Shown here in pieces: positions 57,944 through 63,200 of a stretch of 64,000 nucleotides of DNA. Each line of letters opens with the position of its first letter. Positions within the stretch are counted from its first letter, which is position 1. Source of the DNA: an uncultured Chloroflexia bacterium (lineage in GTDB: Bacteria > Chloroflexota > Anaerolineae > JAAYZQ01); the NCBI GenBank assembly GCA_963700285.1, contig CAVOXA010000004.1:32001-96000 (forward strand), given 5' to 3'. The translations under genes and the position numbers were made by a program. Below the pieces are notes generated by a model. That model saw only the letters and a list, made by a program, of their open reading frames with translations. It had not been told where the DNA came from and ran no database searches.

Positions 57944-59296
57944 ATGGAGCATGCTATCGTCGTGGGCGCCAGGCAAATTGTCCAGCACTGTCTGGGTCTG
58001 GCGCCCAATCAGCAGCTCGTCATCTTTGTGGACGAGACCACGATTGAGCCCGGCGTGGCCCTGGCCGAAGCCGCAGATGCACTGGGTATTTCCCAGACGG
58101 TGTTCCTCGTGCCAGTCTCGGTCCAGCGCCGGATTCCTGGCGACCGCGATCTGAGCTGGCTGGCCCAGAAGGCCGCTCAAGACGCGCGGGCGATCCTCAC
58201 CTGCGTTACCGCCGACCCCGAGTGCCTGCCTTTCCGCCAGAGGATCCTGGAGACGCACTGGACAGCGCACACCCGCATCGGCCACATGCCAGGAGCCACC
58301 TCCGAGGTACTCAAGCTGGCCAACGTTGACTTTGAGCAATTGGTACGCAGTTGCTGGTGCGTGGAGATTGCCCTGGCCCGGGGCAGGACGCTCGAGTTCG
58401 TCAGTTATGACTGCAAGGGCGCAGCCCACAGCCTGACCGCCGACATTGGGGGCTGGGAGCGCCTGCCGGTGGCCAGCGACGGCGTCATCAACGATGGCGC
58501 CTGGGGCAATGTCCCCTCGGGCGAAACCTACATTGCTCCCATCGAGGGCACCGCAGCAGGTACTGTCGTCGTCAACGGCTCCATCCCGGGCCTGGTCATC
58601 GGCCCGTCAGCAGAGTTGGTCCTGACCTTTGAACGCGGCCGTCTTGTCCGCCTGGAACCGGCCGATGGCCCCACGGCAAGGTGGCTTTACGAGACGCAGA
58701 TCAACAAAGCCCGGGCCGCGGGCGACCTCGAGTGGTCCAACCTGGCCGAAATCGGCATTGGCCTGAACCCGACCGTGACCTGCCTTACCGGCAACATGCT
58801 CTTTGACGAAAAGGCGGCGGGCACGGCCCACATTGCCCTGGGCACCAATGTCTATATGGGCGGGATGGTCTATTCTAGCATTCACTGCGACATGGTCACC
58901 CGCCTGCCATCCATCCTCGTCGACGGCAAGCTGCTCCTTGACCGGGGGCATCTACGATACTCGGAGGCTGCCTGGCACGACCGCCACTCACAGGTTTCCC
59001 TGCAAGACAGCCCGCTTCGAGAGGCAACCCGCGTGGCCCGCTCGGGGGTGCAGGCCATAACCGCCCCCGATGGGCGGCTGCAGCGCATGCTCCGGCCAGA
59101 GCCAGGCCGCCTGTCAGCCTGCTATGTGGGCGATTCCCAGACTTCCCAGCTTGCCAATGCACTCTATAGGCTCATACCCGCCGAGGACAACGATCTGCCC
59201 GTAGAGGAGCTGATCCGTCAGGCAAACATGGACGCGGCCCTTGTCCGGCGGGTATTACACATCCTCAAGAGCTATGAACTGATTAAGGTATCGTAG
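57944..59296 (+). CDS. M29-like metallo-aminopeptidase with a ~100-aa C-terminal extension
   Basis: GNVPSGETYIAP, AEIGIGLNP, DEKAAGTAHIALG, IHCDMV; tail VEELIRQANMDAALVRRVLHILKSYELI resembles a winged HTH. Confidence 0.82.
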   Translation: MEHAIVVGARQIVQHCLGLAPNQQLVIFVDETTIEPGVALAEAADALGISQTVFLVPVSVQRRIPGDRDLSWLAQKAAQDARAILTCVTADPECLPFRQRILETHWTAHTRIGHMPGATSEVLKLANVDFEQLVRSCWCVEIALARGRTLEFVSYDCKGAAHSLTADIGGWERLPVASDGVINDGAWGNVPSGETYIAPIEGTAAGTVVVNGSIPGLVIGPSAELVLTFERGRLVRLEPADGPTARWLYETQINKARAAGDLEWSNLAEIGIGLNPTVTCLTGNMLFDEKAAGTAHIALGTNVYMGGMVYSSIHCDMVTRLPSILVDGKLLLDRGHLRYSEAAWHDRHSQVSLQDSPLREATRVARSGVQAITAPDGRLQRMLRPEPGRLSACYVGDSQTSQLANALYRLIPAEDNDLPVEELIRQANMDAALVRRVLHILKSYELIKVS

Positions 59297-59340
59297 CACG
59301 GGAGCCAGGTCCAGAGGTATCTCGGGCAGTGAGGTGTACG

Positions 59341-60843: not shown

Positions 60844-63200
60844 CCTGGCTCGACGCTACAGTCCCAGGACCGGCTGAAGCGCCGGCCACGGTGCGCCACA
60901 ATCGTGATGCCATTGCCCAGATCGTACGCTGTGTGGAAGAAGGCGACTATTGCGCTGTCCTCGGACCGCGACTGTCCGGCAAGACCATGATCTTGCGCTA
61001 CGTGGAGCGGACCCTGGCCCAGACTCACGGCTGCGCCTGTGTCTACGTGGACCTGTATGACACGCGGGCCTCGACCTTGCAGGGCTTTTTTACCAACCTG
61101 ATGCGCTTCACCGCGCAGCGCGTCCGGAACATCGCCGGAGTGGACCTGCTCGCCCCAGAGGTCGGTCAGTCCAGCAGCGCCGTGTTCCGCGGCTTCCTGT
61201 CCGATGCCGTCACCCAACTGGGACAGGATCTGGTGCTGATCATCGAACACCTGGAAGCGGTCCCCACCGACCTTGTCCAGGCGCTTCTGACCTCGCTCCG
61301 GGCGGCCTACATGGATCAGCAGCTTCAAGACAACCGTGTGATGGTTGTCGTCTCTGGCGCTCTGAGCTTGGCGACCCTCACGGTGGGCGAATCATCCCCG
61401 TTCAGGGGGATCGCCCGGCGCGTGTTCGTCGGCGACCTTACCGAGAGCGAGAGTGGGGCGCTCGTCGTGGAGGAGCTGGCAGACCGGGGCATCACCCCGA
61501 AGGAACAGGCGCTGCGCCGGCTGCTCGCGGCCTCCAGCGGCGATGCCTATCTGATCCGCCATCTCTGCCAGCAGGCAGCAGAATCCACCCTTGCCACATC
61601 AGCGACCCGCTTGCGGGCAGCGACTGTGAAGCAGATCGTCCGCGAGTTTCTCCGGGACAGGGTCTACCACTACACACCGCTGCAGGAAGCTGTGCGCATG
61701 ATCGAAGATGATCCGGACCTCCTGCGCTGTATCCTGCTCTTGCTGGCTCATGGCGCCGTTCCCCGGTCAGAGTTGCCCCTGCCCCTCTCTCCCGATGTTG
61801 ATCCCTTGTACCTGACAGGCATAGTGGATCGGATAGGTGACGGCAGCTACCGCATACAGAACGGCATCTATAGCAAGTTTCTGGCCCGGCATTTTCATCC
61901 AGGCCACGTGGGCCACCTGCTGGTCATGGCCGGACGATGGGACTCGGCCCTTGACTACCTGGAAGCAGGCATAAGGGAAGGCAACGAGCAGGCCCGGGCA
62001 GACCTCCTACCCGCCACCATCAACTCCATCTACGCCTCGGAGGATCTGGGCCGGGCGGCCCATTTTTTGACCCGCGGGCTCTCGGCGGGCTTTGGCGTGG
62101 TGGAGGCGCGCGTGTGGATCCTGCAATCCTCTGGCAACCGCCTGCGCTTGGTCGGACATATGGGCCCCAAAGCCGCCAGCGCCCCGTGGGGCGATCCAGA
62201 GATATCCCTCAATGCCGACCGCCTGGAGGCACGCGCCTACCGCCAGGCGCGCGCGCTGCGTGGGACAGAAGTGGGCCGGCATGTCTGGCGGGCCATCCCG
62301 TTGTTGATCCCGGGCCGCCCCCCCGTCGGGGTAGTCACCCTGTGCGATGATCTGCTGGGCGACCGGTTCGTGGCGCAGCGAGAGCGCGAACTGCAGCAGG
62401 TGGGCTATTTGAACCAGGCCGCGCGGGCCATGCAGGTAGTGAGCACCCGCCGCCGGGAACTGGAACTGGCGGGGCGCATGCAGGCCAGCCTGCTGCCCAG
62501 CGCCTCGCCCGACCTGCCTGGCTGGCAGATCGAGGCCACCCTGCTGCCTGCCCGCGAGACCTCGGGTGATTTCTACGATTTCATTGACTTGCCAGGAGGA
62601 CGGCTGGGCATCGTGATCGCCGACGTAGCGGACAAGGGAATGAGCGCCGCCCTGTACATGGCTCTGAGCCGCACCCTAATACGCACCTATGCCCCAGGCC
62701 ATCCGGAACGCCCGGACCTGGCGTTGCAGGCCGCGAACGACCGCATTCTGGCTGATACCCGGGCCGACCTCTTTGTCACCGTCTTCTATGGCATTCTGGA
62801 TCCCGCCGGCAGCACGCTCATCTACTGCAATGCCGGGCACCACCCGCCCTACTGGCTGTCGCCCGAAAACAGCCGGGGCTCCGGAGGTCAAGCGCCCGTC
62901 CAGGCCCTGCCCGGCCGGGGGATCGCGTTGGGTGTTATTGAGGATCCAGACTGGGGCTGCTCGACGATCAAGCTGGACCCGGGCACCGCGCTGCTGCTGT
63001 ACACGGATGGGGTGATCGATGCCCATGATTCAGACCTGGCGCCCTTTGGCAGCGAGGGGATCCTGCAAGTCGCCCAGTCGAACCTCGGCCGGCCGGCCCA
63101 ATCCCTGTTGCAGGACCTGCTTTCGCACCTGCAGCAGTTCACTGGAGGCCAGCCCCAGTTCGATGATATTACCCTGGTGGCGGTACGTCGCGAGAGCTAG
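60840..63200 (+). CDS. AAA_35-like ATPase + GAF-like region + PP2C (SpoIIE) phosphatase
   Basis: GPRLSGKT, degenerate Walker B IIEHLE, SPF; PP2C motifs SGDFYD, IADVADKG, NAGH.PP, YTDGV, DDIT; GTGA overlap. Confidence 0.87.
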   Translation: MTWLDATVPGPAEAPATVRHNRDAIAQIVRCVEEGDYCAVLGPRLSGKTMILRYVERTLAQTHGCACVYVDLYDTRASTLQGFFTNLMRFTAQRVRNIAGVDLLAPEVGQSSSAVFRGFLSDAVTQLGQDLVLIIEHLEAVPTDLVQALLTSLRAAYMDQQLQDNRVMVVVSGALSLATLTVGESSPFRGIARRVFVGDLTESESGALVVEELADRGITPKEQALRRLLAASSGDAYLIRHLCQQAAESTLATSATRLRAATVKQIVREFLRDRVYHYTPLQEAVRMIEDDPDLLRCILLLLAHGAVPRSELPLPLSPDVDPLYLTGIVDRIGDGSYRIQNGIYSKFLARHFHPGHVGHLLVMAGRWDSALDYLEAGIREGNEQARADLLPATINSIYASEDLGRAAHFLTRGLSAGFGVVEARVWILQSSGNRLRLVGHMGPKAASAPWGDPEISLNADRLEARAYRQARALRGTEVGRHVWRAIPLLIPGRPPVGVVTLCDDLLGDRFVAQRERELQQVGYLNQAARAMQVVSTRRRELELAGRMQASLLPSASPDLPGWQIEATLLPARETSGDFYDFIDLPGGRLGIVIADVADKGMSAALYMALSRTLIRTYAPGHPERPDLALQAANDRILADTRADLFVTVFYGILDPAGSTLIYCNAGHHPPYWLSPENSRGSGGQAPVQALPGRGIALGVIEDPDWGCSTIKLDPGTALLLYTDGVIDAHDSDLAPFGSEGILQVAQSNLGRPAQSLLQDLLSHLQQFTGGQPQFDDITLVAVRRES

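Follow-up and report, generated by a model that had tools for sequence, protein, structure and literature searches.

Operons in which two STAND ATPase genes stand side by side, the second with eroded nucleotide-binding motifs, have been described computationally as nSTAND2 operons (Kaur et al. 2021, PMC8195603). In the part of that paper devoted to them, the first gene has the architecture '??+STAND+wHTH' (wHTH, winged helix-turn-helix) and the second an eroded STAND and wHTH followed by a variable C-terminal output; both proteins keep the arginine finger, and a hetero-multimer of the two is predicted; the outputs listed are HEPN or GT4, the rows come from Proteobacteria plus one from Calditrichaeota, and 'GAF' occurs 0 times in the source file of Fig. 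6. Here, we analysed a three-gene operon of an uncultured Chloroflexia bacterium (Anaerolineae, JAAYZQ01), located at positions 57944-63200 of a window of 64,000 nucleotides (GenBank assembly GCA_963700285.1, contig CAVOXA010000004.1, positions 32,001 to 96,000 of the forward strand; coordinates below are those of the window, the whole stretch analysed). It encodes an M29-fold protein, a STAND ATPase and a pseudo-STAND followed by GAF and PP2C domains, named here g1, g2 and g3, genes and products alike.

The operon shares with the nSTAND2 operons, as that account presents them, a pair of neighbouring STAND genes, of which the second has eroded NTP motifs and a C-terminal output, and an arginine finger in both proteins (R280 of g2 and R154 of g3, identified by position and by a model interface). 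It differs from them by its GAF-PP2C, histidine kinase or TCAD9 outputs, its occurrence in Chloroflexota and its optional M29-fold gene; HEPN or GT4 was fused to none of the scanned g3 homologues. The nSTAND2 profile (PF20702), which other Anaerolineae STANDs reach at E 1e-40, gave no match to g3 at E 1 or better and scored g2 at 22.3 bits, below its cut-off of 24. Since this profile misses g3 and falls short on g2, and the listed effectors differ, the operon has an nSTAND2-like layout but falls, judged by sequence, outside the nSTAND2 family. An earlier note on this DNA, made from the letters alone, knew no named system with this combination of genes; no account of the operon was found in the literature, where unexamined supplementary neighbourhood tables of STAND surveys might list it, but the two-STAND layout as such had been described already with nSTAND2. 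The available portion of a ParA preprint (10.64898/2026.10.19.760177) holds no mention of PP2C, GAF or M29.

Inactive STANDs beside active AAA+ ATPases are also known from BREX (BrxB/BrxF) and from the MoxR-vWA ternary systems, in which these iSTANDs are proposed effector regulators (PMC12839542, PMC7159879). The present operon has in common with them an inactive STAND adjoining an active ATPase. According to the sections of those papers on iSTANDs, they lose their Walker motifs, in BREX also the helical bundle, and evolve fast, whereas g3 keeps much of its Walker A, its helical domain and its winged helix and is conserved; MoxR, vWA, PglX and PglZ are none of them a conserved neighbour of the operon. 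The archaeal proteins PAB2304 (2QEN) and SSO1545 (2FNA), as well as Orc1/Cdc6, share with g2 the ATPase, the helical domain and the winged helix, which span its residues 139-484. Unlike 2QEN and 2FNA, which consist of the ATPase-wHTH module alone, g2 adds a nuclease-like N-terminal domain and a pseudo-ATPase partner with an output enzyme. PP2Cs of the RsbU/SpoIIE type are partner-switching phosphatases. Like them, g3 has a GAF and then an intact PP2C, and RsbW-like kinases and STAS proteins are encoded in the genome; unlike in RsbU/SpoIIE systems, input here passes through a pseudo-STAND paired with an active STAND, and none of the adjacent genes is a partner-switch gene.

Our preferred reading, to which we give a probability of about 0.55, is that g2 and g3 make up a switch of ATPase and pseudo-ATPase, where g3 would complete the active site of g2 and relay its nucleotide state to a PP2C acting on STAS proteins in trans.

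Results

A two-gene core with an optional third gene

The operon and its parts are laid out as follows.

57806-57835, plus strand: sigma70-type promoter-like site TAGGCA-18-TG-TATAAT with extended -10, 108 nt before g1
57944-59296, plus strand: g1, intact open reading frame (ORF), 450 aa
57944-58957, plus strand: g1 residues 1-338, M29-fold dinuclear metalloenzyme domain (from Pfam, ligands and solved relatives)
58961-59296, plus strand: C-terminal tail of g1, about 110 aa, with a pattern of three strands followed by three helices
59341-60843, plus strand: g2, intact ORF, ATG start, 500 aa
59341-59754, plus strand: g2 N-terminal domain, residues 1-138, predicted PD-(D/E)xK restriction-endonuclease-like fold
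59755-60843, plus strand: g2 STAND ATPase (MNS/Orc-Cdc6 type), helical domain and C-terminal winged helix (from motifs and model)
60840-60843, plus strand: start/stop overlap GTGA between g2 and g3, AAGGAG lying upstream
60840-63200, plus strand: g3, intact ORF, GTG start, 786 aa
60840-61889, plus strand: g3 residues 1-350, pseudo-STAND, paralogue of the g2 ATPase
62037-62444, plus strand: g3 about residues 400-535, divergent GAF (from profile-profile comparison)
62592-63200, plus strand: g3 SpoIIE/RsbU-type PP2C phosphatase, with GDFYD, DVADKG, YTDG and DDIT intact

The three genes are intact and co-oriented with the last two overlapping by GTGA, as the earlier note had reported, and we infer that g2 and g3 are translationally coupled through this overlap; the junction in most homologous loci is an overlap of -4 or -14 nt. 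For comparison, 37 loci from genome contigs and 40 regions from genomes of the class were gathered, from which known duplicates, fragments shorter than 420 aa and long fused forms were dropped, leaving 55 loci besides the window. Related genomes are not independent, and the synteny figures given here are counts, not tests; the tree of g2 is a quick IQ-TREE tree whose long branches make its deep branching uncertain, and it is not used to put events in order. One unpublished genome (G346) enters the tallies and no other claim. The homologues that carry names are from Anaerolineae and other Chloroflexota.

In 54/55 loci, the gene immediately downstream of g2 is a g3 homologue (tblastn), and in the 55th it is an AAA + GAF gene. 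Over 56 rows, g1 is present in 21, absent in 27 and unscorable in 8, i.e. present in 21/48 scorable loci, and it turns up in several of the deep branches in the tree of g2. Across 401 genomes of the class, the tailed g1 homologues other than g1 itself lie directly before g2 in 14/14 cases; among 80 metagenome loci, of the 11 long (tailed) copies for which downstream sequence is available, 10 have a g2 homologue as the next gene and the other one a transposase, against 0/39 of the short (tail-less) M29 copies with at least 900 nt downstream. The tail marks the M29 copies that adjoin g2. Given the near-constant adjacency of g2 and g3, the lack of g1 at many loci and the position of tailed g1 nearly always before g2, the core is g2 with g3, and g1 is a dedicated yet optional partner. 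In terms of the co-occurrence of the three genes, proposed earlier as a check, g2 and g3 are almost always together, and g1 joins them in part of the loci.

Upstream of g1, the motif TGnTAYAAT is present within 250 nt in the window locus and in 10/18 homologous loci, compared with a background of 106/12200 random windows (0.9%); upstream of g2 it is found in 0/20 loci with g1 and in 4/34 loci without it. The ratio of nonsynonymous to synonymous substitution (dN/dS), calculated against three relatives, is 0.08-0.30 for all domains of g1-g3, which is purifying selection, the g3 pseudo-STAND having 0.22-0.24. The three-gene operon occurs in one copy in the genome, and its GC content at third codon positions is 0.77-0.78 for a window median of 0.76. 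Synteny, purifying selection and the conserved promoter-like motif together indicate that the locus is more than a chance arrangement.

In some loci without g1 (L038, L040, L045, L048, L070 and L073), a second PP2C gene often lies just upstream of g2; those scanned encode REC-, cNMP- or multi-GAF-PP2C proteins.

The eroded STAND of g3 is predicted to reach into the ATP site of g2

The canonical Walker motifs that had been read in g2 are Walker A GIRRIGKT (175-182), intact in 69/69 homologues, and Walker B D260/E261, intact in 66/69, together with Arg280 (at least 90% of homologues). The structure model of g2 has a predicted local distance difference test score (pLDDT) of 90.1. Residues 139-490 match best the archaeal MNS-type STANDs 2QEN (Z 22.3, root-mean-square deviation 4.0, 318 aligned) and 2FNA (Z 21.0), followed by an NLR resistosome (Z 19.6) and Orc1/Cdc6 (Z 18.4).

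Residues 1-367 of g3 are paralogous to the ATPase and winged helix of g2 (hhalign 99.9%). In g3, a Walker A (GPRLSGKT) accompanies the degenerate Walker B IIEHLE, both as first noted, the Glu of the latter being replaced. Among 51 homologues of g3, the Walker B Asp-Glu is found in 1/51 and GK[ST] in 31/51, and Arg154 is kept in 51/51.

When g2 was modelled as a 1:1 pair with residues 1-400 of g3, as had been suggested earlier, the interaction prediction score from aligned errors (ipSAE) was 0.76 (0.78, 0.76 and 0.71 in the runs) versus 0.00 for three controls, with a contact agreement between runs of at least 75% and a partner pLDDT of at least 82. The ipSAE mark used is reached by 116/157 solved pairs and by 2/215 mismatched pairs, the alignments being purpose-built. 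In the model, g3 residues 151-165, including Arg154, lie on T182, 203-211, D260 and E261 of g2, and the conserved 309-319 loop of g3 lies on g2 residues 396-405 and 484-494. A contact of the first kind is the geometry of an AAA+ trans arginine finger. The helix of g3 bearing Arg154 is therefore predicted, from the model, to act on the ATP site of g2 as an arginine finger in trans. In two relatives, P0262 (CHAT) and P0247 (EAD7), the g2 module is joined in a single polypeptide to an AAA_35 STAND and to an effector or adaptor, and these natural fusions are independent support for the pairing of g2 with g3. Paralogy, adjacency, predicted binding and fusions in relatives uphold the part of the earlier reading in which an active and an inactive ATPase, as a pair, are coupled to a phosphatase.

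The same structural matches could point to a sensor resembling the origin recognition complex (ORC) and Cdc6, in which two ATPase-winged-helix modules bound to DNA or RNA would report the state of the chromosome, of replication or of damage to the phosphatase. Orc1/Cdc6 is indeed among the best structural matches (Z 16-18), both proteins have winged helices, g2 has a nuclease-like fold, and ORC too mixes active and inactive subunits, according to a passage of PMC8195603. We regard this possibility as improbable, since the Z scores of the archaeal MNS STANDs are higher (21-22), none of the conserved neighbours in the close clade is a replication or repair gene, and the winged-helix end of g2 (484-494) is engaged by g3 in the model.

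The output domain of g3 is exchanged between loci

The PP2C domain of g3, noted before as intact, matches SpoIIE (PF07228) at E 3.8e-48, with 164 bits for a cut-off of 25, and all four motifs are kept. The GAF domain that the earlier note had placed before it is missed by Pfam, which gives 0 matches in g3 and weak ones in 2/26 homologues, but profile-profile comparison of the region with 14 Pfam-confirmed GAFs supports the assignment (hhalign 94.9%, E 4.6e-8).

Over the 55 loci, the g3 homologues end in PP2C (39), histidine kinase (7) or TCAD9 kinase (1), or are GAF-only or truncated (8). More distant g3-like partners end in CHAT, TIR-like or calcineurin-like domains, and some of these distant partners (L092-L102) keep the Walker B Asp-Glu. 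The kinase versions of g3 are followed by REC-TCAD9 or REC-OmpR genes. In L054, L079, L083, L085, L088, L089 and L090, a kinase or multi-GAF version of g3 precedes a gene for REC and TCAD9 (an APH-like kinase), and in L087 the TCAD9 is fused to g3. The sets of g3-kinase and REC-TCAD9 constitute an apparently undescribed phosphorelay.

In three metagenome loci (L160, L161 and L162), the tailed-M29 and STAND genes are followed by a different third gene, which ends in CHAT in L160, with the Walker B IDHLE carrying the His substitution common to g3, and in a calcineurin-like phosphoesterase in L161 and L162.

As the earlier note stated, no anti-sigma or Ser/Thr kinase gene flanks the locus in the annotation of the flanking ORFs. 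Elsewhere, the genome encodes four RsbW-like kinases, all of them with a small STAS gene close by, and it has four SpoIIE-type phosphatases; near three of the four RsbW-like/STAS pairs there is no phosphatase match.

The N-terminal domain of g2 and its modular family

Folded alone, the N-terminal domain of g2 gave a pLDDT of 89.9 and a model that agrees with an alpha-beta-beta-beta-alpha-beta core. Its best structural matches have Z 7.3-5.0, and among the top 16 there are 10 whose titles name a restriction or CRISPR ancillary nuclease; AF1548, VC1899, CdiA-CT and the FdxN factor are also among the matches, and we take these to share the PD-(D/E)xK fold. Foldseek with this domain returned nothing at E 0.001 or better, and an Atlas search gave one unnamed lead at 0.83. 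The structural comparison makes a PD-(D/E)xK restriction-endonuclease-like fold probable. The catalytic Asp and (D/E)xK were not recovered in an alignment of 128 rows, in which the best acidic column reaches 68% and the best Lys column 20%. Therefore, the domain is likely inactive as a nuclease.

The g2 profile was searched against 1.84 billion representatives, which gave 2426 matches at 1e-30, of which the best 150 were analysed. The N-terminal domain is present in 145 of these 150, and 96 of them extend the g2 module by a further region at the N-terminus. In the 46 of these fusions that were scanned, the added domains were beta-propellers, TPR, HEAT, pentapeptide, TIR, caspase, CHAT, Mrr, EAD7, EAD8, bDLD1, kinase-FHA, REC, histidine kinase, GAF and tubulin-like domains. 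Because the N-terminal domain is near-constant and the extensions vary, g2, with its 500 aa, appears as the constant core of a modular family, in which the N-terminal slot is empty here and may be filled by g1.

Two of the fused proteins (P0244 and P0250, 1500-1600 aa) have Tubulin_2 N-terminal to the g2 module. In seven further loci (L095, L096, L098, L101, L102, L106 and L107), proteins of about 1200-1340 aa end in the g2 module; the two scanned have a BNR/sortilin beta-propeller, in five of the seven loci the preceding gene is that of DNA polymerase III alpha, and in L101 and L102 an AAA_35 gene comes next.

g1 is an M29-fold protein that departs from the aminopeptidases

In line with the M29 metal-binding motifs read earlier, g1 matches Peptidase_M29 of Pfam above the cut-off (E 3.4e-7) and keeps all six ligands of the dinuclear metal site (E194, E269, E289, H296, H314 and D316), which are near-invariant. 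In a profile search of the PDB, the best match is NicX (7CN3, E 1.4e-16), a dioxygenase and non-peptidase, followed by AmpS (1.8e-7), PepS and AmpT (1.1e-5); a single-sequence phmmer search of the PDB with g1 gave no match. The M29 catalytic Tyr, seven residues after the first His (His+7), is present in 0/18 tailed copies, V303 of g1 aligning to the Tyr of AmpT/AmpS, and a Tyr at His+8 is found in 2/18, of which g1 is one.

The earlier note called g1 an aminopeptidase and inferred that the ATPase pair couples a peptide or proteolysis cue to dephosphorylation; in this reading, the signal relayed to the phosphatase would be a peptide that g1 takes as its substrate or releases as its product. The near-invariant ligands, the dedicated position of the tailed copies before g2 and their presence in several deep branches speak for such a role. 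However, g1 is missing from 27/48 scorable loci, the His+7 Tyr that is required in the M29 aminopeptidase tested in the relevant part of PMC4661694 is lacking in 18/18 tailed copies, the best solved relative is NicX rather than AmpT/AmpS, and CgnB, with the same six ligands, showed no aminopeptidase activity in the corresponding section of PMC10070186. We find a peptide or proteolysis cue as the core input improbable; the name 'aminopeptidase' is unproven, and g1 is, to judge by its residues, probably an M29-fold enzyme of non-canonical chemistry. It shares the fold and the six dinuclear-site ligands with AmpT/AmpS/PepS, NicX and CgnB/CgnE, and differs from them by the lack of the conserved catalytic Tyr, the extra 110-aa tail and the dedicated linkage to an ATPase pair.

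The C-terminal tail announced in the earlier note is present, but its description as winged-helix-like found weak backing, with E 0.03-0.8 against winged-helix models. Comparison of the tail with the winged helix of g2 was insignificant (probability 1.5%). An RRE/PqqD identity, suggested by Atlas leads at 0.75-0.79, was not supported by hhalign, which gave a probability of 0.23%, within the shuffled range.

Distribution, neighbourhood and the question of defence

The stand-alone form of g2 occurs in 32/401 class genomes (E <1e-60), and the profile of its N-terminal domain matched 0/400 other genomes in a phylum sample of 401. Among viral contigs, 27 pattern matches yielded 0 confirmed relatives, and the 22 plasmid records are all at most 25% identical and of other architectures. 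Flanking genes vary between loci and are mostly metabolic or housekeeping, with no conserved companion gene among the flanks of the homologous loci. Of 96 neighbour genes compared with PADLOC at 1e-10, 10 matched, of which one is a clear defence gene (type IIG restriction-modification) and the remaining 9 look like shared housekeeping domains, in a count made without a control set. NCBIfam and PADLOC scans of g1-g3 gave no specific family beyond generic ATPase and PP2C matches.

These data bear on the possibility that the operon is an anti-phage or counter-invader system, in which the inactive nuclease fold and the pseudo-STAND would sense the invader, the pair would oligomerise, and the PP2C would be the defence effector, causing dormancy or reversing phage-driven phosphorylation, by analogy with the HEPN and GT4 proposals for nSTAND2 operons. 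The layout shared with those operons (PMC8195603, in the part cited above), the conflict domains fused to the g2 module, the CHAT, TIR and calcineurin-like outputs of more distant versions, some of them with g1, the patchy distribution and the variable flanks are all in its favour, as is the proposal, made in a portion of PMC12839542, that inactive restriction endonucleases beside NTPases are nucleotide sensors in immunity. Nevertheless, the defence check found no PADLOC model that fits beyond generic ATPase matches (best E 8.5e-5) and no companion genes, a single clear defence gene lies among the 96 neighbours, and the operon was not found in viral contigs, its plasmid matches being distant. 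Moreover, the pseudo-STAND is conserved, whereas iSTAND sensors are characterised in that same portion as fast-evolving, and the identified outputs of the close clade are all classical signalling enzymes. We consider a defence function unlikely, while giving it some weight.

Several observations weigh against the switch that we prefer. Three of them fit defence: the wider g2 family is rich in conflict domains (TIR, caspase, CHAT, EAD7/8, bDLD1), the distribution is patchy, and the three-gene layout exists also with CHAT and calcineurin-like outputs. The STAS proteins are candidate targets by co-residence in the genome. The nuclease-fold call has Z below 8 and lacks a Foldseek match. A canonical GK[ST] in 31/51 g3 homologues means that g3 may still bind nucleotide. 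Because g2 and g3 are paralogous STAND folds, the complex score may in part be due to their resemblance to AAA+/ORC pairs of solved structure, and the arginine-finger contact comes from a model without nucleotide, which makes it geometric.

Other features of the window and of related loci

On the plus strand at 56445-58154, a nucleotide pyrophosphatase/phosphodiesterase ORF (Pfam residues 88-368) overruns the promoter-like site and start of g1, probably through a frameshift near its end; the gene is not a conserved neighbour, and a BREX-like reading derived from it (PglZ, E 0.025) was rejected on that ground. At 52500-56300, the genes of a Cys/Met enzyme dependent on pyridoxal phosphate, an aspartate kinase and a semialdehyde dehydrogenase are each split over several frames, and in other parts of the window the recA-like, PPDK and DNA polymerase III alpha genes are likewise frame-broken. 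These broken genes are probably due to assembly indels; the three-gene operon is by contrast intact.

Two large co-oriented ORFs of 682 and 729 aa occupy 33170-37542 (plus strand), the latter matching Pfam TcA_TcB_BD (C-terminal domain of TcA of the Tc toxin complex) at E 8.6e-26, a Tc-like gene in an Anaerolineae genome. At 1634-3712 (plus strand), a BNR-propeller and HEAT-repeat protein precedes a PAS-GAF kinase and a LuxR regulator, and an IS21-like element lies in pieces at 28219-29576 (minus strand). At one related locus (L122, 1591-2009; G000:C4, about 96.6-97.0 kb), a tandem array of 6.1 copies of a 69-bp unit with 98% matches follows a lone response-regulator-like ORF and is itself followed by a pentapeptide-repeat ORF of 1136 aa on the minus strand.

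Discussion

In the switch proposed here, the intact STAND of g2 would bind the eroded STAND of g3 as a heterodimer, and the Arg154 helix of g3, packed on the Walker A and B motifs of g2, would sense the nucleotide state of g2. This state would pass through the helical domain and the GAF linker and turn the PP2C on or off. The input would reach the N-terminus of g2, either at the inactive nuclease-fold domain, whose ligand would probably be a nucleic acid or a nucleotide, or at a domain in front of it, where relatives hold a fused sensor, enzyme or adaptor domain. The PP2C may then act in trans on STAS anti-anti-sigma factors encoded elsewhere, with a change of an alternative-sigma regulon as the outcome. 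In this scheme g1 would be a dispensable, dedicated input or reset enzyme in the upstream slot, likely docking by its tail and with a substrate that is perhaps not a peptide. A nucleic-acid or invader signal leading to a non-lethal regulon would combine the switch with the anti-phage explanation.

The theme of an active/inactive STAND pair is known, such pairs having been proposed so far as lethal counter-invader devices, and the version with signalling outputs is new. Within one family, the same core carries CHAT, TIR or calcineurin-like outputs, which are of the defence type, as well as PP2C or histidine kinase, which belong to classical signalling, and this shared core offers a route from immunity modules to ordinary regulation. 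A fold is now proposed, from modelling, for a previously unannotated domain of 145 of the 150 best representatives, and a dedicated M29-fold enzyme, probably of non-canonical chemistry, is flagged. The PP2C version would have a non-toxic colorimetric read-out, so that the coupling between pseudo-STAND and active STAND is accessible in vitro.

More tentatively, and at somewhat less than even odds, we propose that filamentous Chloroflexota have domesticated an immune-type STAND heterodimer as a general signalling input, in which a pseudo-ATPase would serve an active STAND as arginine-finger partner in trans and pass the nucleotide state of the latter on to an interchangeable PP2C, histidine kinase or Ser/Thr-like kinase. 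If this is true, the operon would represent a new class of bacterial sensor, in which the sensing of invaders or nucleic acids would possibly be connected to sigma-factor and two-component regulons instead of cell death, and the M29-fold protein dedicated to the pair would produce or remove the signal, as an enzyme other than a peptidase.

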